DNA of 64,000 nt, taken from the sequence record PZ445448.1. The stretch is one strand, 5' to 3'. The number at the start of each line of letters is the position of its first letter. Positions within the stretch are counted from its first letter, which is position 1. A program made the position numbers and the translations under genes. Of the stretch, positions 540-46,527 are shown one piece after another. A model generated the notes under the pieces. It did not search any database and was not told the origin of the DNA. It saw only the letters and a program-made list of their open reading frames with translations. The DNA comes from a phage.

Positions 540-2607
540 ATTTATGGCATCTGCATACAACCGTTTCGGTGAGCCAAACCCGAAAGCAACTAAGTATAAA
601 AGTGGGGGAAGTGTGAAACGAGACTATCGTGATGAAAAAGAGGTTGAAACTGTAGAGACTGTTTTAGAAAATACTAAAATTGTCCCTGTCCCACAACAAA
701 ATATCGGTCTGATGGCTGCACAATATTTTGGTGTGCGATCAGCATTGTCACAAGAAGACGGTGTGACAGTCACTGCAACATATTTCCCATATTACGACCG
801 CTACGGAAATCTGTCCGGTTTCAAAAAGCGTGACTGGACTATTCCTAAAGAACAAAGGGGCCACTTCTCCGTTGTTGGCATCGTAAAGGCCAACTCCCAG
901 ATGTTTGGTCAAAAGCTGTGTGCATCTTCCAACAACCGTAAGCAGATTAACGTTTGTGAGGGAGAAGGTGATGTTATTGCAGCATGGCAGGCTGCATATC
1001 AGATACAAGTAAAAGGGATTCTCACCAACGCTAAAGCCCCGGCAAAGGTGAAGCAGTGGGCTAAAGAGGTCCAGGACGGGATCGACGCAGTTATCAACGG
1101 TGGTGATCTGGCAGGAAAACCCTGCCTGCCTTTTGTTGGAATTAACTGTGGATGTGCAAACGCAGTAGATACTTTTGCAAACAATGAGAAGTTTATCCGT
1201 AGCTATGGAACAGTTGTGCTGGCAATGGATAACGATGCAGCTAACGAGGTAGAGAAGCAAAAACACGTCATTAAAGGTGTTGAGGCCACGCACAATATCG
1301 CAGCATTTTTGATGGCTGATAACGTTTACCACGTAGAATACCCTGGTGAAGTAAATGACCCTGACGGGGTAAAAGATATCCGTGACATGCTGAAGGCTAA
1401 AAAGCTGGAAGATATTGTCAACATGTTCCGGCACCCTGTTAAATATGTGCCTGATGCTGTGTCGGATTTAGAAGACTTCTCTATCGAGTCTTTGCGGAAA
1501 AAGACTTCCAACGGGGTAGATATCAGCGCAGAGTTCCCAAAACTGCAAAAAATGCTAAAAGGCTTGCACAAAGGGACACTCGTAATGCTTACAGGGCCAT
1601 CAGGGGGCGGTAAAACAACTGTAGCTAAAAAACTGGAACATTGTATTGCAAGATACCTAATGGACCCGACATGCCCGAAGGCTGATGACTATGAAGAGGA
1701 TGATCGTCTATGTATGATCCATCTTGAGGAGGACCCAGAGGAAGCAATTAACTCCTTGTATGCAAACCAGTTAGGGTTTGATGTTAAAGAGTTTGTTGAA
1801 GATCCTAGCCAGTTTTTAACTGATCAAGAACACGCAGAGATTCACCAATCATGGGCAAAAGCTGGAAAAATCAAAGTGTTCAAACATTTCGGATCTATTC
1901 CGGTGGACGAGTTGATTACCAAGCTTAAGCAAATGGTTTGCCTGTACCATTGCCGTTATATTGTGCTGGATCACCTGTCCATGGTAATTTCAGGGCTTAA
2001 TGTTAAGGATGAGCGAAAAGAACTGGACATGGCTATGACTCAGCTGGCTGCGTTTTGTAAGCAGTTTAACGTGTTTATCTTGGTGATCGCTCACCTCAAA
2101 CGTACAGAGATTGTGCCTCCTAAGGACAAGGATGGTAACCCGTTACCTTTCTGGTATCCTGTGCGAAAAGAGAATTTGCGAGGATCGGCGGGGCTTGAAC
2201 AGTTGAGTTGGGTAGTCATAGGTGTCGAGGCCGAAGAAATGGTGGATCGTTCTCGTGGACGTGTCCGTCTGGTAGGTCTTAAAAACCGTCCAGCAAAAAC
2301 TCTAGGTATTGCTGACACTTTGGTTATGGACCCGCACACAGGTAAGTTCCATGATGCCAGTAATTGGTACTGGGACAAAGAAATGCAAATGTTTACAGAC
2401 GGAGAAGGTGGGGAGGTTGTTTGGAGACCTCAGGCTATGTTTGAGGATCAGGAGCATGCAGTTGTAGAAACACCTATGGGCAAGGTTGTGGCTGATAAGG
2501 TTGTAACTCCTACTGTTAAGCCTGTTGACACGCAGGAAGACCTCCAGTACGATGATCCATCCTCTGACCCGGTCCCTGGTTTTGAGGATGATGAAACGCC
2601 TTTTTAA
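529..2607 (+). CDS. DNA primase-helicase (TOPRIM + DnaB/T7 gp4-like helicase)
   Basis: TOPRIM-like CEGEGD and MDNDAANE; Walker A GPSGGGKTT; Walker B IVLDHLS; acidic C-terminus ending ...EDDETPF. Confidence 0.8.
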   Translation: MGSKFMASAYNRFGEPNPKATKYKSGGSVKRDYRDEKEVETVETVLENTKIVPVPQQNIGLMAAQYFGVRSALSQEDGVTVTATYFPYYDRYGNLSGFKKRDWTIPKEQRGHFSVVGIVKANSQMFGQKLCASSNNRKQINVCEGEGDVIAAWQAAYQIQVKGILTNAKAPAKVKQWAKEVQDGIDAVINGGDLAGKPCLPFVGINCGCANAVDTFANNEKFIRSYGTVVLAMDNDAANEVEKQKHVIKGVEATHNIAAFLMADNVYHVEYPGEVNDPDGVKDIRDMLKAKKLEDIVNMFRHPVKYVPDAVSDLEDFSIESLRKKTSNGVDISAEFPKLQKMLKGLHKGTLVMLTGPSGGGKTTVAKKLEHCIARYLMDPTCPKADDYEEDDRLCMIHLEEDPEEAINSLYANQLGFDVKEFVEDPSQFLTDQEHAEIHQSWAKAGKIKVFKHFGSIPVDELITKLKQMVCLYHCRYIVLDHLSMVISGLNVKDERKELDMAMTQLAAFCKQFNVFILVIAHLKRTEIVPPKDKDGNPLPFWYPVRKENLRGSAGLEQLSWVVIGVEAEEMVDRSRGRVRLVGLKNRPAKTLGIADTLVMDPHTGKFHDASNWYWDKEMQMFTDGEGGEVVWRPQAMFEDQEHAVVETPMGKVVADKVVTPTVKPVDTQEDLQYDDPSSDPVPGFEDDETPF

Positions 2608-2669
2608 TGTTTAACAAAGAGTGGGAGGGGTAGTACAACCGCCTCCCCTTTAAGGAGAACGTTTATACT

Positions 2670-5093
2670 ATGAGTATGTGGAATTTTGACTTTGAGGCCT
2701 CAGGTCTTCTGGACGAGGAAGATCTTTACTACCATTGTGGCCTGTTTAAAGAGTTGAATAAAAATAATTTTATGTTGTTTTTGCCTATCAATGATAGATC
2801 TCATTACAGTGAAGAGGAGGTTGAAAAAGCAAAACAATTTATGCTGGCAAAGCAAGATATCTATCCTAGCTGCTCTGTCCGTATTGCGGATTTCAGCCAG
2901 CTTGAATGGTGGTTAACCGGGAACTCCGATTGGTCACCCACATCATTAAGTTGTCACAACTGTTTTAGTTATGACTTTATCTTGATGGAGAAGCTGTCTG
3001 GTATTCATTTTGATATGTTCCGTGATCCCAAGTGTATGGGGACAATCAATAATCATCAGGTGAACCTGTTCGACACTCTGCCAATGAGTCGTATACTATG
3101 GCCCGACAGACCGTTACCTAAAGGATGCCCTGATTCTGTATACAATCCTGTTACAAAACGTATGCAGCAGGTAGGTCCTCATGGCCTAATGGCGTGGGGG
3201 TACGCTTTAGGAAACCAGAAGGTTAAAATTGATGACTGGAGAAATTTACCTCTGTGGAAGTATGTTGATCGTGTATTCGAGGACGTTATCATCCAGGAGC
3301 TGCTCTGGAAAGAGCTGGTAGCGGAATCAAAAGGTGTATTCTACGGCAAATCTGACATGCAGAACTTTATGTACGATCCAGCCAAAGAGAAGCCGAAAGG
3401 GTTCAAGAAGATTACCTGGAAGAATGCATTACGCCGAGGCATGCTGCAGCATTTCCTGATGGAGCTGCAGGCTCGACAGGGTGTGTATTTCGACATAGAT
3501 GGGGCTATTGCTTTACGTGACCGCTGCGATGCGTGGATGAAAGAGATCGCTGATCGTGTTGAACCACAACTTCCTTTAAAAGAGTTATCAATGTCTCAGC
3601 GGCCTAAGTTCCCTGAAAAGCCGTTTAACCAGGATGGGACAATCTCCAATAATGGTTGGAAATGGTTAAAAGACAAGCTTGGCTACCCTGTGGACATGAG
3701 TGCTTTAGAATTCAAAGCTCCTCCTAAGCGAGCATTTACCTCCACAGGAGATGTCAGTAAGATGGGGATAAAATGGTGTGAAGAGATGGGCTGTAAAGAC
3801 CCTGATAAGATGGCGGATTTCTTGAGGGGCTATATCAAGGGCACCTCCACACCACAACCTTTACCTAAAGAGCTAATGGATCAGGCAATAAGTGATCTAC
3901 AGCAGAAGCGAATGCCTGACTGCAAGATACCTATGAAAATCAGCAATCAGGACGATATTAAGCGATACCTGATCAGTGCTGGTTGGCTTCCGACAATGTG
4001 GAGAACTAAGGATGTAACTAAAGACAGCAAGAAGAAAGCTCTACCTGATGCAGATGTTGATGCACGAGTGTATGCATATATGGACGAGCTTTTAGAGTCA
4101 GAGTATTGTGACCTAATTATCAACTTCTGGAACAAAACTGATGCTAAGTTCCAGACAACCGTGCACAAGTTCCGAAGCTTTCCTAACTCCGAAAGGATTA
4201 AAAAGGAAGTATTCGGGAAAATACGTAGAAAAGCTAGGGCACTTATTACTTCTCCGCAACTGAAAGATACGTTTGGACACCTATGCCCGAATCTTGAAAA
4301 ATTGAACGGAGAGATGGCTAAAGATATCGTCTTGTGGTTATCATTGCGAAACCGCAGATCGGTCCTTGATCCAATCAAGGAGGATAAGGTTGATACTGGT
4401 CTTCTTAATCACCCACGTTTGAAGATTGACCATAAGCTTCCTGCTAAAAGTTCTGGATTAACAAACACTTCCCGACAGAAACATAGTATTTGTGCAAACA
4501 TGCCTAAACCATCTCCTAAAGTGGTTATGGGTAAAGAGATGCGTAGTCTGTGGGGTGTTCCTCCAGGATACTTTGAGATCGGTATTGACGGGTCCAACTT
4601 AGAGCAGCTTATCGGGGCTTGGGGTGCCTTTGAGTTCGACAACGGCCTGTATTACGATGTTGTAAGTAACGGGGACGCACACCAAAACAATGCTGAGGCA
4701 TATACAAAAGTAGCAGGTAGAGAGGTGTCTCGTAACGACGGTAAACCTATCACGTATGGGGTTATGTATGGGGCACAAAAAGATAAAGTTGCAGATATGC
4801 TGGACATCTCTCCAGAGTTGGGACAAAGGGTAATCGATGCACTCTGGGATGCCAACCCTGGTCTTAAGGGGCGTAAAGAAGATCTGGAGAAATTCTGGGA
4901 AGCAACGGGTAAGAAGTTTATCTACTCTTTTGATGGTCATGCTATCTGGACCCGATCTAAACACTCTTTACTTAATGCATACCAACAAAATGGCGGCGCA
5001 TCGTTGTGTGACTTAGTTGGGATACTCATGCACCATCAAATGGTGAAGCGTGGGTGGTACGATGAAGGTGTTCGTCGTATTATCTATTACCAT
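2670..5093 (+). CDS. DNA polymerase, family A, exon 1 (3'-5' exo + polymerase motifs, ends before motif C)
   Basis: N-terminal FDFEASGL (DnaQ-like Exo I); motif B-like KPITYGVMYGAQ; ORF stops one codon after ...RRIIYYH; SD aaggag upstream. Confidence 0.8.
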
Positions 5094-5935
5094 AAATAAC
5101 ATTGTGGCTTCGTGCAGTGATGCACGTCGAAAACCTCTTTAATTGACGGGAAGGCTAAGTTGACTTTTACACCTAAACATGGTAAAAGCTCAATATGCTA
5201 ATCCGCAGCGAAGACTAAAGGGGTGTAGTTAAAATGGCTAGATCAGTTGAGTATCACGGATATACCGTGTTTGATGATGGAACAATACCTTTATCGAAAC
5301 GTGATCATACAACAATGTTTTGTTTTGATAATGGTCGAGGTTACCTTTGCGTAACCATGTTCATCGAGGGGAAGCAGTGCACAAAAGGTGTCCACCACTT
5401 GGTTGCTGAATGCTTTGTATCAAACCCTGATCCTGAAAGGCTCACATGGGTGAACCATAAGGACGGAAACAAATACAACAATGCATACTGGAACCTTGAA
5501 TGGACCACCCCTGGTGGAAATATCAAACACGCTTATGATAATGACCTCAGAGTAAGGCCAGTCGGTGAGTATAATGCCAACGCTGTACTGACCGAGGATG
5601 AGGTAACGGAGATTTGCGAACTGTTACAAAGTGGTTTACGACAATGCGAGATTAGGGATCTTGGGTATCCTTATGAGACGGTCAGAGCCATAAAGCAAAG
5701 AAGACAGTGGAAACATATCTCTAAAAACTACACCTGGTAGTAACGTTCAGAGACTATCGAAAGCATAGCGCCAACATAAATTGGTGCGAAGAAGCGAGTA
5801 GAGTAGACCAGCAAGTGCGGTCGAAATGGGAGGTGCCTTGGTAACAAGGTAGTGAGATAGTCCGATCCATACAGGAAACTGTATGGCTGTGCACGTAATG
5901 GTGCGGGGTAGCTTAACGACCTACCTGAACTATTG
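5094..5935 (+). mobile_element. putative group I intron with HNH homing endonuclease ORF, inserted at polymerase motif C
   Basis: Exon ends in U (5093), insert ends in G (5935); GACUA and UAGUC strings in 3' part; flanking ORFs rejoin in frame as YYH|DEYQ. Confidence 0.6.
5234..5740 (+). CDS. HNH homing endonuclease
   Basis: HHLVAECF...VNHKDGNKYNNAYWNLEW HNH motif; lies inside the insert splitting the polymerase gene. Confidence 0.75.
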   Translation: MARSVEYHGYTVFDDGTIPLSKRDHTTMFCFDNGRGYLCVTMFIEGKQCTKGVHHLVAECFVSNPDPERLTWVNHKDGNKYNNAYWNLEWTTPGGNIKHAYDNDLRVRPVGEYNANAVLTEDEVTEICELLQSGLRQCEIRDLGYPYETVRAIKQRRQWKHISKNYTW

Positions 5936-6289
5936 GATGAGTACCAACTTCAAGTCCCTGACACACCGAAGTATAAGACTGTGTACACCTTCGACACAAT
6001 CGAAGAACTGGAAGCATTTAAGGCAGAGCAGGAGGCCAAACTTCATGTGTTCGACGGTCATAAGTACAAAAAGGCACGCAAGGATGAGGACGGAAACGAA
6101 GTGGTTGACAGAGACGGAAACACGGTGTACGATCCTATCCTGAACGATGACGGAAAGCTTGAACTTATCTGGAGCCCTGTGGGTGAAATGGTGGTGCATT
6201 GCTTCTGGCAAGCTTCTAAAATGATGGGCGTCCCGTTCCAGATCACGGGTGAATACCTGTGTGGTCGTAATTGGGGTGATTGTCACTAA
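5936..6289 (+). CDS. DNA polymerase, family A, exon 2 (motif C to C-terminus)
   Basis: Begins DEYQ (completing HDE motif C after splice), ends ...GRNWGDCH like T7 polymerase C-terminus; no ATG or SD of its own. Confidence 0.65.
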   Translation, partial: DEYQLQVPDTPKYKTVYTFDTIEELEAFKAEQEAKLHVFDGHKYKKARKDEDGNEVVDRDGNTVYDPILNDDGKLELIWSPVGEMVVHCFWQASKMMGVPFQITGEYLCGRNWGDCH

Positions 6290-6338
6290 TGTAAACTATC
6301 AACACATGGAAGTGTTGTTGAGCAAAGAGGAGACTTTT

Positions 6339-6623
6339 ATGGTAGTAGAACCAACAAAAACATTTACATCCATGACTATCCCTGTTATTATGCAGGTGGA
6401 GTGTGTTCAGGTATCTCAAGTGTGGCCAGGCACTAAAATCCCAACAGGGCCTGATTTCTTTCAGGTTGGGAAAGTGTACAATGTCTGGAAGGCACCAGAT
6501 TGTCACCCTTTCATTAAAGATGACCGTGGGATGCTGTGGTATCTTGGAAATGACTTGACACTGCACCTTGGGAATGCTATTATTGCAGTATTCAGACTTA
6601 ACAAGAAGGAGACCGATCAATGA
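6339..6623 (+). CDS. hypothetical protein
   Basis: ATG with SD aaagaggag 6 nt upstream; longer track ORF 6249.. overlaps polymerase exon 2. Confidence 0.4.
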   Translation: MVVEPTKTFTSMTIPVIMQVECVQVSQVWPGTKIPTGPDFFQVGKVYNVWKAPDCHPFIKDDRGMLWYLGNDLTLHLGNAIIAVFRLNKKETDQ

Positions 6624-6847
6624 CGACTTTGGTTAAAGCCACCTTTGTAGAAGAAAAGATGACAGACATGTCATTCTTTAAAGAAGGAAAGACCTACGAG
6701 GTTTATTACGATAAAGCTCGTGCAAACAAAATGATTAAAGACGAGGAAGGGGTTGACTGGTATATCTCTCACCTGGCAAACGGTGAGTATCATATCTACG
6801 GAACCACTTTGCTTGCCAAGTTTGTAGTTGTTGAAGAGGACCTATGA
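6620..6847 (+). CDS. hypothetical protein
   Basis: 75-aa ORF, ATGA start/stop overlap with upstream gene. Confidence 0.5.
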   Translation: MTTLVKATFVEEKMTDMSFFKEGKTYEVYYDKARANKMIKDEEGVDWYISHLANGEYHIYGTTLLAKFVVVEEDL

Positions 6848-7038
6848 AAGTAAAGTATCTTGCTGAAGGTATGAATAGGTATTTTACCCTTGGTGAAGAA
6901 TATTGGCCCTTTACAAACAACGGCGATGTCTACGTGAAAGATAATTTCGGCACGCCGTGGTTTCTGCACTCTAATGGGCTGGGATACTCCATTTACTGCG
7001 GTGCAGTGAACAACACAACTCTTGCAGAGTTCGTTTAG
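6844..7038 (+). CDS. hypothetical protein
   Basis: 64-aa ORF, overlapping-stop coupling. Confidence 0.45.
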   Translation: MKVKYLAEGMNRYFTLGEEYWPFTNNGDVYVKDNFGTPWFLHSNGLGYSIYCGAVNNTTLAEFV

Positions 7039-44146: not shown

Positions 44147-45409
44147 TCAGCAACCACAACTTCCGTAGTGCTTAACTCGCTCGATAACTTCCGCTTGCTT
44201 ACCTTTATTGTAAGGACGGGAGTTAGGACTGGAAAGATATCCAGACACTCTTCGGATCACTGAGATATATTGTTCATCGTGGCATCCGCACGCAGGGCAG
44301 CAGAACCCTTTAGCTGTTGCACTGAACTCACCAGAGAAACCACACTTGAGACATTTATCCACAGGTTGGTTAATACCAAAATACATAATGTGTTTATACC
44401 CGAAGTCAACAAGAGCCTCTAAAGCATCCAAGTTGTTTTTCAGGTTAGGTGTCTCTACGTATCCGATGTTGCCACCAGAGGAGATCATAGCAAAACCTTC
44501 CTCATACTCCCACTTATCAAAAGGAGAGCTATTTATCCATACTGGCTGATGGAAACTGTTGGTGAGATATTCATGCTCGTGCTTCAACACTTCCGGATAT
44601 TCACGATCCAGACAGGTTGCAGCTTTATAGCATAGACTCTCAGAAGGAGTGCCGTACAAGCTAAACGCTAGTCTACTTTCCTTCTTGTATCGCTCACAAG
44701 CATCTCTCATGTGCTGAAGGATTCCAAGAGCTAAAGCCTTGTCACCCTCTCTACCCAAAATCTGACAGGTTTCATACACACCAATATACCCAATACTGAT
44801 GGAAGCGTACCCGTCATAGAAGAGTTTATCAATACTCTCTTCAGGATCCAGGCGAGCAAGAGCTCCTTCACACCACATGATTGGGTTCTGCCCTGCCTTT
44901 GTTCCTTTTAGACGGTTAACCCTTACAAGGTGAGCCTCGTATGCAAGATCCAAGTATTCGTCAAGAACTGCAAAGAAATCAACACCTTCCGTCTTAGCTT
45001 TTGCCGCAATCATTGGTAGGTTAAGGCTAACAACGCCTAAGTTAAATCTGCCAAGATATTTCTCCTCGCCTGTTTCCAAGTCACTGTATTTGCTAAGAAA
45101 ACTCCGGCAACCCATGCTCGTTACTTTGCCATCTGTCGAGCCTGTCACTTTTCTATTTAGTGGTACAGATACGAAGTCAGGGTAGATACGTTCTGCACAG
45201 CATTCCAGAGCTAATCGTTTCAAATCATAGTTAGGATCCTCAGGGTTCATGTTGACACCCTCTTCTAGGAAGAACAGCACTTTAGGGAACACAGGTGTGA
45301 TCCGTTCTTCACCAAGACCCATTTTGTGGACTTTCAAGTAATTTTTGGTAATCATTCTACCAAAGACCGAGGTATCCAGTCCTAAACTTAATGTGATAAA
45401 AGGGGTTTG
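44147..45409 (-). CDS. nrdD: anaerobic ribonucleoside-triphosphate reductase, exon 2
   Basis: C-terminal CCPACGC zinc site and glycyl-radical RVSGYL; frame open upstream of track Met to Q codon at 45409. Confidence 0.8.
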   Translation of the reverse strand, partial: QTPFITLSLGLDTSVFGRMITKNYLKVHKMGLGEERITPVFPKVLFFLEEGVNMNPEDPNYDLKRLALECCAERIYPDFVSVPLNRKVTGSTDGKVTSMGCRSFLSKYSDLETGEEKYLGRFNLGVVSLNLPMIAAKAKTEGVDFFAVLDEYLDLAYEAHLVRVNRLKGTKAGQNPIMWCEGALARLDPEESIDKLFYDGYASISIGYIGVYETCQILGREGDKALALGILQHMRDACERYKKESRLAFSLYGTPSESLCYKAATCLDREYPEVLKHEHEYLTNSFHQPVWINSSPFDKWEYEEGFAMISSGGNIGYVETPNLKNNLDALEALVDFGYKHIMYFGINQPVDKCLKCGFSGEFSATAKGFCCPACGCHDEQYISVIRRVSGYLSSPNSRPYNKGKQAEVIERVKHYGSCGC

Positions 45410-45666
45410 CGGTCCCCACCCTTATGTTTCCACAAGGCCAGACTATCTCTTGCCTGAAATCACACCGTGTGATTCTTAATCAGACCCCTGCGTTTCGGAA
45501 TCTTCCATAATCCCTACACCAAAAGGTTAGTCGTTACAACCGCCTCACTCCTTGTGAAGCTAGTCACGGGATTGGCATAGCTTTCGCCTTAGCGTTCCCC
45601 GTTAGCCAGCGATCAGCTGACCCCTCATACTAAGGTTAGCAGAGTTTTAAAACGGCCAGTTTGTTA
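45410..45666 (-). mobile_element. ORF-less group I intron in nrdD
   Basis: Exon 1 ends in U, intron ends in G; ACGGGGAAC...CAAUCCCGUG and GACUA/UAGUC core strings; splice gives ...LTSVNG|QTPF... Confidence 0.75.
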
Positions 45667-46527
45667 ACCGTTTACCGAGGTTAGTGTGTTGATCTGATAA
45701 AGCAACGTCTGCATGCTGTCAAACACGTCTTTATCTGTCATTTGCATTGCAACAGTCTCAGCATCTGGCAACCAATGTTCCTGGCAAAATTTAAGGTTCT
45801 TCTCATAAGTCGCCTCAGCATACTGTGCCAAATAATGGTCAATATGGCTCATAGTCTGACCCCCATATTGAGCACTAGCTACTGCACTAGAGATTTGGCT
45901 AAGGATTGTTGTTGCAACCCCTATTGACTTCGGCTTACTGACATGGGCGTTACCAATGTTGAATCCGTTTTCCAACATATCTGGATAATTTACCAAACAA
46001 CAGTTTGTTAACGGACTGATCAAGTAGTCAAGATCATGCACATGGATGAAGCCTTTATTGTGCTCTTCTGAAACACGGTCTGGCAGGATCTGTGTTGATG
46101 CAAGGTGTTTGCTAAGGATGCCTGCAAGCAGGTCACGATGAGTGTGTACATGATTGGTAGGCTTATTTGCGTTTTCTTTTGTAAATTCATCACAAGTTCG
46201 ATCCAAGAAGCCACTAATATCTGCAAGCAGTTTTCCACCTGCCTCTCTGTTATTATCTCTTGTCTGTCTATACTGGATGTATTCTCTGGCTGCACATTTT
46301 AAACCCATATCCATAAGAGCATCTTCAACAAGGATATGGATATTTTTTACAGAGATCGTGCACTGGTCGGTTGGTAGATTGTTAGCAACAACTTCATTAA
46401 CCGCGCAGGCGATCCGGTAAGCTTCTTCTTCAGTATGTCCAGACTCAAGTAAGGCGGACTCTGCCGCCTTGATCACCTTAATTCCGTTATAGAACTCTTC
46501 TCTACCGTCCCGTTTTACAACTTTCAC
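45667..46527 (-). CDS. nrdD: anaerobic ribonucleoside-triphosphate reductase, exon 1
   Basis: N-terminal ATP-cone-like MKVVKRDGREEFYNGIKV; ORF stop lies 1 codon past proposed 5' splice site. Confidence 0.8.

Follow-up and report, generated by a model that had tools for sequence, protein, structure and literature searches.

Group I introns of subgroup IA2 interrupt the td, nrdB and nrdD (sunY) genes of phage T4, where they possess P7.1 and P7.2 helices, carry ORFs looped out from peripheral helices and present an in-frame stop codon soon after the 5′ splice site. The subgroup is recognised by the presence of P7.1 and P7.2 between P7 and the 3′ strand of P3, joined by G-U-A (PMC3428280). According to the same paper, the T7-like phages ΦI and W31 have, at Pol I site 881, IA2 introns whose P6a holds an HNH ORF; these introns self-splice both in vitro and in vivo and encode the HNH endonuclease I-TslI (Bonocora & Shub 2004, as cited in PMC3428280). 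Within the Vequintavirinae, both polymerase introns of the Pectobacterium phage CB7 (genus Certrevirus) splice, as determined by RT-PCR and cDNA (Sanger) sequencing (PMC7344957). As for the rV5-like phages, the rV5 genome paper reports introns in the terminase only and lists the polymerase as a protein of 775 aa, and in the BASEL paper intron boundaries were annotated via comparative genomics.

The window, by which we mean the whole 64,000-nt stretch of DNA that was analysed (record PZ445448.1), comes from a Vequintavirus (rV5-like) myophage of E. coli, which is the host of the insert described here. Across positions 4000-7000 it shares 98.9% identity with SophiaRose, and dozens of other phages match it at 94-98%. 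Within this region, the segment at 5094-5935 is very probably a group I intron of IA2 type that is mobile and splices itself, and that separates the codon for His from the codon for Asp in motif C of a family-A DNA polymerase gene (Table 1). Splicing of the PZ445448.1 copy is inferred from sequence comparisons.

A sequence-only reading of this region had described a polymerase ORF that starts at 2670, carries FDFEASGL and motif B, and is followed by a second compatible frame running from DEYQ to GRNWGDCH; both frames are present in the ORF list. The unspliced polymerase ORF spans 2670..5099 and codes for 809 aa; it has FDFEASGL close to the N-terminus, contains KPITYGVMYGAQ, and reads ...RRIIYYHK before the stop. 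It had been taken to stop right after ...RRIIYYH, but the exon-1 frame continues into the insert for two codons, AAA UAA (5094-5099). The downstream frame, read from G5936, begins DEYQLQVP, finishes with ...GRNWGDCH and ends with its stop at 6289. As first described, exon 2 lacks an ATG, and it is not preceded by a purine-rich Shine-Dalgarno sequence. Joining U5093 to G5936, as had been proposed, yields an in-frame coding sequence of 2778 nt and 925 aa, which reads ...IIYYH^DEYQL... (here and below a caret marks the splice junction) and restores HDE. The predicted ligated exon sequence is TATTACCAT^GATGAGTAC, and the junction-spanning peptide is IIYYHDEYQLQVPDTPK.

The joined protein aligns with T7 gp5, a check that the same reading had suggested, and the alignment runs uninterrupted through the junction (E 1.6e-13), setting YYH^DEYQL on WVH653^D654-E655-IQV. 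In this alignment, motifs A (DGSNLE), B (KPITYGVMYGA) and C (YYHDEYQL) are continuous once the insert is removed. Profile searches returned a match of the polymerase to PHROG 17 (E 5.4e-89), together with a PHROG 8888 profile that itself spans the junction, its positions 1-185 falling on the exon-1 tail and 186-295 on exon 2. The Pfam DNA_pol_A match (E 8.3e-7) lay under its cut-off, and an NCBIfam search with the spliced polymerase gave weak Pol I matches only. As judged from these alignments, the insert splits motif C (HDE) between His and Asp, just ahead of the residue that aligns with T7 D654, the second catalytic aspartate of the T7 and Klenow polymerases.

The limits of the insert were examined using a synthetic query of ligated exons (400 + 350 nt), which was compared with Vequintavirus genomes. 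This query found a single unbroken match in many of them, including rV5_ev158, in which 750/750 bases aligned at 99.3% identity. The rV5_ev158 polymerase CDS is 2778 nt long, the length of exon 1 plus exon 2, and its junction reads ...TATTACCAT^GACGAATATCAG...; intron-less Vequintavirus alleles carry TATTACCAT^GAYGAR, which is exactly the predicted ligated junction. Both predicted splice sites are placed exactly, as shown by these intron-less alleles, which agree with the proposed U5093-G5936 join. Closely related genomes were found to be polymorphic for the presence or absence of the intron and of the endonuclease ORF.

The codons that flank the junction were CAT^GAT in all of the intron-bearing alleles extracted (14/14); in intron-less relatives the His codon was CAC in 14/24 and the Asp codon was GAC in 6/24. 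Within the genus, exon 2 starts with GAC GAA TAT CAG in 7/8 intron-less alleles and with GAT GAG TAC CAA in 6/7 intron-bearing alleles, counts that come from sampled alleles that are not independent of one another. The two versions are separated by four synonymous changes in 12 nt, in flanks that are otherwise nearly identical, a pattern compatible with a constraint from P10 acting alongside co-conversion or variation of the target site. JohannBauhin is intron-less and starts exon 2 with GAT GAG TAC CAA, apparently representing either a precise loss or an unoccupied susceptible site.

The predicted splice-site arrangement of 5094-5935 is that of a textbook group I intron. A U5093•G5104 wobble in P1 marks the 5′ splice site and is invariant in nine variants, and the internal guide sequence CAUUGUGG occupies 5100-5107, where its CAUU (5100-5103) pairs with the GAUG of exon 2 (P10). 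In a duplex calculation, ligated exons and guide sequence (P1+P10) formed 8 continuous bp with an energy of -9.1 kcal/mol, whereas a GAC-type exon 2 and the guide sequence formed only six bp at -4.9 kcal/mol.

A covariance-model scan, which had been put forward as a way of checking the group I assignment, gave a full-length match to Rfam RF00028 at 5084-5885 (positions 1-253 of the model, interrupted in P6 by 510 inserted nt), at E 3.7e-8 and a score of 39.1 bits, which is below the curated gathering cut-off of 50 bits for this model. ORF-less copies at the same site scored 72.5 (JLBYU08), 64.7 (rV5) and 91.2 bits (19-1-2), and the JLBYU08 intron is ~93% identical over the aligned intron core; the sub-threshold score of the insert's own copy is most likely due to the 510-nt ORF insertion in P6. 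When the whole 64,000-nt stretch was scanned with Rfam at the gathering threshold there was no match, showing that introns with an ORF inside escape a search at the curated cut-offs. A sensitive Rfam scan of the whole stretch returned the 5094-5935 intron and one more candidate.

We then wrote an explicit P1-P9.2 structure onto an alignment of nine variants from which ORF interiors had been stripped. CB7 and phiTE, in which rearrangement of the P5/P6 region precludes a gap-free alignment, were left out; in the manually entered exon flanks, the final exon base of Mangalyan stands as A where G is correct, at a position that belongs to none of the counted pairs and has no bearing on the pair count. 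Across the nine sequences, which are related and not independent, the 61 pairs in 11 helices were 98.3% paired, compared with 35-44% when partners were slid by 1-3 columns, although the paired fraction is inflated relative to the slid controls by the structure having been drawn from the same sequences. Counts of pairs changed on both sides are less affected by this, and numbered 22 in the nine variants against 0-5 in the slid controls; the observed covariation score was reached by 0/500 shuffles. Compensatory replacements were found in P2, P3 (long-range), P7 (pseudoknot), P7.2, P8, P9, P9.1 and P9.2. P5 and P7.1 align poorly, yet form hairpins of differing sequence in each variant, and all the standard core helices are fully paired in the PZ445448.1 copy. 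The GACUA (5752-5756) and UAGUC (5858-5862) strings that the sequence-only reading had picked out, in an insert correctly seen to end in G, turn out to be the two strands of P7. These comparisons strongly support a group I fold for 5094-5935. In addition, the P7.1 hairpin is followed in all variants by GUA(G/A) and then by P7.2, and by this P7.1/GUA/P7.2 criterion the intron appears IA2-like.

Table 1 Predicted features of the interrupted polymerase gene and its insert (positions in the window; nine-variant alignment for pairing and covariation).
Feature	Positions	Strand	Details and evidence
DNA polymerase exon 1	2670..5093	+	808 codons, end ...IIYYH; ORF list, PHROG 17/8888, Pfam DNA_pol_A, T7 gp5 alignment, intron-less alleles
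P1 hairpin	5090..5107	+	CCAU^AA (5090-5095) with UUGUGG (5102-5107); Rfam alignment, invariant in 9 variants
Group I intron, subgroup IA2-like, 842 nt	5094..5935	+	Begins AAAUAA, ends G5935; Rfam RF00028, intron-less alleles, covariation
P2 hairpin, 6 bp, GUGA (GNRA) loop	5111..5126	+	5/6 pairs changed on both sides, 100% paired
P3 5′ strand CCUCUU, partner 5828-5833	5134..5139	+	3/6 pairs changed on both sides, 100% paired
P4 (5144-5150 with 5202-5207) around extended P5 hairpin (5154-5198)	5144..5207	+	P4 96% paired; P5 hairpin differs in sequence in each variant
P6 5′ strand GCG (5208-5210) and P6a 5′ strand (5214-5228)	5208..5228	+	P6a duplex with 5728-5741, -17.4 kcal/mol
HNH homing endonuclease gene (putative), 168 aa, I-HmuI-like, P6a loop	5234..5740	+	PHROG 59, PDB 1U3E; ORF absent from ORF-less intron alleles
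P6 3′ strand CGU (5744-5746), J6/7, P7 5′ strand GACUAU (5752-5757)	5744..5757	+	P7 covaries: GACUA/UAGUC versus GGCCA/UGGUC
P7.1 (5758-5796), linker AGUAGAGUAG (5797-5806, GUA-containing), P7.2 (5806-5822)	5758..5822	+	P7.2: 2/4 pairs changed on both sides, 100% paired
P3 3′ strand GGGAGG (5828-5833) and P8 hairpin (5835-5850, GUAA loop)	5828..5850	+	P8: 4/6 pairs changed on both sides
P7 3′ strand AUAGUC	5857..5862	+	Structure on the nine-variant alignment, covariation
P9 (5867-5886, GAAA loop), P9.1 (5890-5905), P9.2 (5907-5925)	5867..5925	+	Changed on both sides 4/8, 1/5 and 2/5; all 100% paired
Terminal guanosine (omega-G), last intron base	5935	+	Invariant in 14/14 intron alleles extracted
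DNA polymerase exon 2	5936..6289	+	117 codons + stop, DEYQ...GDCH; ORF list, PHROG 8888, T7 gp5 alignment

The insert also contains a free-standing HNH ORF, as had been seen from the letters alone, and its 168-aa product matches PHROG 59 (E 6.5e-38). Its sole significant relative among solved structures is I-HmuI (1U3E; E 4.4e-6), the match running across vHhLVAecF...vnHKDGNKyNNaywNLeW. The Pfam HNH_3 match (E 0.0027) reached 17.7 bits and lay below the cut-off of 24.8, and an NCBIfam search with the HNH protein gave no useful match. The protein is an I-HmuI-like HNH endonuclease, with a presumed homing activity and target. Its gene lies in the P6a loop: the last codons and the stop of the ORF form the 3′ strand of P6a (5728-5741), and the Shine-Dalgarno-like AAGGGG of the HNH gene falls within the 5′ strand of P6a (5214-5228), where it is paired with the gene's own 3′ end. 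An equivalent closing helix of different sequence can be read in Av-05, A5-4 and GEC_vB_MG, and P6a may limit translation of the endonuclease. A consensus scan of 4800-6400 for a promoter or terminator of the HNH gene found none above shuffle expectation.

Across the Vequintavirinae, the YYH^DE site is filled by several versions of one ribozyme. The window shares with SophiaRose, WalterGehring and Mangalyan an intron of 842-843 nt with an HNH gene in P6a; Av-05 carries a version of 843 nt that is ~71% identical, again with an HNH gene in P6a, and the 771-772-nt introns of GEC_vB_MG, A5-4 and Klebsiella K54_rec carry a different HNH gene. CB7 and phiTE (687 nt) have a third, shorter HNH gene. 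In PVP-SE1 (919 nt) the cargo is a LAGLIDADG gene in the P7.1 region and P6 is an intact hairpin. The introns of rV5, 19-1-2 and JLBYU08 (276, 317 and 329 nt, respectively) are ORF-less. We tentatively raise the possibility that every stage of the homing cycle can be seen in nature at the motif-C site, on a single ribozyme scaffold, on the basis of its empty sites, ORF-less ribozymes of three sizes, cargo consisting of at least two unrelated P6a HNHs plus the shorter HNH of CB7, or of a LAGLIDADG in the P7.1 region, and the JohannBauhin allele. As part of the same tentative proposal, the four exon-2 changes might mark endonuclease-resistant and -susceptible alleles, and the sharing of a site with ΦI and W31 might reflect one lineage that moved between unrelated phage families. 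Separately, the Mangalyan polymerase contains a true intein elsewhere, which is absent from the PZ445448.1 stretch.

In the mechanism that we propose, the polymerase gene would be transcribed into one pre-mRNA in which the P1-P9.2 core would fold and CAUUGUGG (5100-5107) would pair with the CCAU of exon 1, creating the U5093•G5104 wobble. An exogenous guanosine would attack after U5093; the GAUG-CAUU P10 would then form, G5935 would occupy the P7 G-binding site, and exon ligation would give a message for the 925-aa family-A polymerase (...YYHDEYQ...). Ribosomes on unspliced RNA would halt at the UAA, two codons into the insert, giving an 809-aa product without the aspartate that matches T7 gp5 D654, which is presumably inactive. 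In a mixed infection, the HNH protein would cut or nick intron-less polymerase alleles, and repair would copy the intron in.

The main alternative dispenses with splicing, and has polypeptides of 809 aa and ~117 aa assembling non-covalently, with a homing endonuclease gene lying between the two gene halves. There is a precedent in Aeromonas phage Aeh1, in which NrdA is split by mobE, as cited in the CB7 paper, and in CB7 itself one HNH insertion in another gene was found to be unspliced, for which the same precedent was invoked (PMC7344957). Most GenBank records do annotate two separate polymerase CDSs, and the ORF list offers a mechanical in-frame TTG at 5933. However, if the RNA were functionless, it would be unexplained why a complete core with compensatory changes is kept even in alleles that lack the endonuclease. 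A separately translated second half is also at odds with an exon 2 that has neither an ATG nor a purine-rich Shine-Dalgarno sequence, with a break inside HDE, between H and the T7 D654-equivalent aspartate, and with flanking codons, CAU^GAU, that follow splice-site rules; moreover, the same-site CB7 intron splices (PMC7344957). We consider a two-polypeptide enzyme very unlikely. The earlier preference for a self-splicing intron over such an enzyme is supported by the covariation, the intron-less alleles and the splicing in CB7.

It could also be envisaged that the group I intron does not splice autonomously but depends on ongoing translation or on a protein cofactor from phage or host, or that it splices poorly and thereby serves chiefly to hold back or time the expression of the polymerase. 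In the Bastillevirinae, the stage of infection at which splicing takes place is reported to vary between introns, and a GTP-sensing 'molecular switch' has been proposed there; in addition, the long P6a ORF and the sequestered ribosome-binding site could slow folding. Against this, the standard helices of the PZ445448.1 copy are all fully paired, the sequence indicates no missing element, and the ΦI and W31 introns, which belong to the same subgroup and have a reported site of 881 in Pol I, self-splice (PMC3428280). An intron of this kind seems very unlikely, and a group I intron that splices itself is the reading we favour. An intein was considered separately and rejected: the insert has UAA as its second in-frame codon, and its ORF lies in another frame.

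The main value of the self-splicing reading lies in annotation. In the majority of Vequintavirus genomes on deposit, the rV5 reference among them, the polymerase is given as a truncated protein accompanied by 'hypothetical' fragments (in the rV5 record, 'hypothetical' ORFs 225-227 cover the intron and exon 2), where the correct product would be one 925-aa enzyme from a spliced mRNA. The locus also provides a natural series for the gain, loss and replacement of homing endonucleases, in which empty sites occur beside introns that lack an ORF, introns with HNH genes of two lineages and an intron with a LAGLIDADG gene, and could be used for testing whether splicing times polymerase expression. It reveals no new kind of element or mechanism, and represents a fairly ordinary phage mobile element.

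Sister phages already have the element annotated as an intron in GenBank, and descriptions of close analogues date from 2004 and 2020. In WalterGehring (BASEL, MZ501111), the intron is 99.5% identical over all 842 nt and has the endonuclease gene inside, and the annotated polymerase CDS is a join of two pieces over 3620 nt (2778 + 842). The WalterGehring/BASEL case differs in being known from annotation only, a description of the RNA structure or a splicing experiment not having been found. The second polymerase intron of CB7, which carries the HNH gene CB7_50, is alike in its site (...IIYYH^DEYQLEVP...), in a P1/guide sequence that is identical, and in a homologous ribozyme 3′ half. It differs in length (687 nt), in having an unlike and shorter HNH (127 aa), encoded by an ORF that has its start more upstream and extends through P4′, and in a diverged P5 region; CB7 also has another polymerase intron, upstream of this one, that is missing from PZ445448.1.

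Pol I site 881 is the His of HDE (Klenow His881/Asp882). The site of the ΦI and W31 introns is probably the same codon boundary as 5093^5936, an identification that rests partly on Klenow numbering. According to PMC3428280, these introns resemble the present one in interrupting a family-A phage polymerase, in subgroup (IA2), in having an HNH ORF in P6a and in the enterobacterial hosts of their phages; they differ in belonging to podoviral T7-like phages rather than the myoviral Vequintavirinae. The T7 gp5-type and rV5-like polymerases themselves have only distant similarity. The T4 introns in td, nrdB and nrdD differ in residing in other host genes and in having endonucleases of GIY-YIG or other types, not I-HmuI-like HNH enzymes. 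Lastly, the introns of SPO1, SP82 and Bastille (with I-HmuI, I-HmuII and I-BasI) are likewise of IA2 type, lie in phage genes for family-A polymerases and encode nicking endonucleases with an N-terminal HNH, but occupy site 674 (Pol I numbering, in the fingers) as opposed to 881 in motif C, in phages of Gram-positive hosts (PMC3428280).

Salmonella phage PVP-SE1 carries the same motif-C ribozyme at the same polymerase site as the window, but its endonuclease gene is of the LAGLIDADG type and lies in the P7.1 region, whereas that of the window is an HNH gene in P6a. One lineage of introns has thus been invaded at different loops by endonucleases of different families. We also spotted by eye, immediately upstream of the HNH ORF in the motif-C intron of phage CB7, a sigma-70-like site (TTGACA-(16 nt)-TATGAT), the counterpart of which is absent from the window's intron.

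Escherichia phage JohannBauhin (L044, MZ501083) lacks the intron and begins exon 2 with the synonymous codons of the ‘intron-type’ (GAT GAG TAC CAA), the only such start among the intron-less Vequintavirus alleles sampled. Its flanks match those of the intron-bearing WalterGehring, and both phages come from one sewage plant. The JohannBauhin allele represents either a precise intron loss or a susceptible site that is unoccupied.

The same polymerase gene harbours further insertions in related phages. In other genera of the Vequintavirinae, an extra group I intron (37-52 bits) lies about 111 codons upstream; exon 1 of the window (2670-5093) shows no interruption at this site. Some sister phages (Mangalyan, 241Ecol014PP) possess a 323-aa intein, which in terms of the window would follow polymerase residue 671 (GDAH|QNN). 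This intein starts with CYSGD, closes with VCGN followed by Cys, and its N-terminus matches Pfam Hint_2 (E 7e-5). The window polymerase lacks it, and has Gln as the +1 residue at the equivalent site.

Group I introns and inteins in Vequintavirinae and related sites. L-numbers denote sequence segments of related phages, with positions counted within each segment.
Feature	Phage	Position	Strand	Remark
Upstream polymerase intron	CB7	L013 1895-2565		
Upstream polymerase intron	Av-05	L017 114-317		
Upstream polymerase intron	19-1-2	L015 114-317		
Upstream polymerase intron	GEC_vB_MG	L016 95-317		
Upstream polymerase intron	phiTE	L011 2257-2927	minus	
Motif-C intron	PVP-SE1	L012 701-1619		Ribozyme and site as in window
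Sigma-70-like site	CB7	L013 about 3052-3085		Intron positions about 103-136
Polymerase intein	Mangalyan	L002 about 2184-3152		Corresponds to about 4683 in the window
ORF-less group I intron candidate no. 2	Window	45356-45663	minus	Rfam RF00028 match 45420-45676

In the rV5 reference record (DQ832317; L004 1001-1630), hypothetical ORFs 225-227 cover a 276-nt ORF-less intron together with exon 2. The rV5 paper lists the polymerase at 775 aa, a length that fits exon 1 alone, and the reference annotation therefore looks truncated. Separately, when window positions 4000-7000 were compared with the phage collection, 16 unannotated ‘Campylobacter phage’ records (MG0656xx) showed 95-97% identity to E. 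coli Vequintaviruses; their host labels look doubtful.

The window contains a second group I intron candidate, which scores 29.8 bits against RF00028 (E 0.0011 over the whole window, 9.9e-6 locally). It is flanked by two minus-strand ORFs corresponding to two parts of the anaerobic ribonucleotide reductase NrdD: an N-terminal ORF with an ATP-cone and NRDD profile positions 1-154, and a C-terminal ORF with NRDD profile positions 180-562 and the glycyl-radical domain. This ORF-less candidate is similar to the nrdD (sunY) intron of phage T4.
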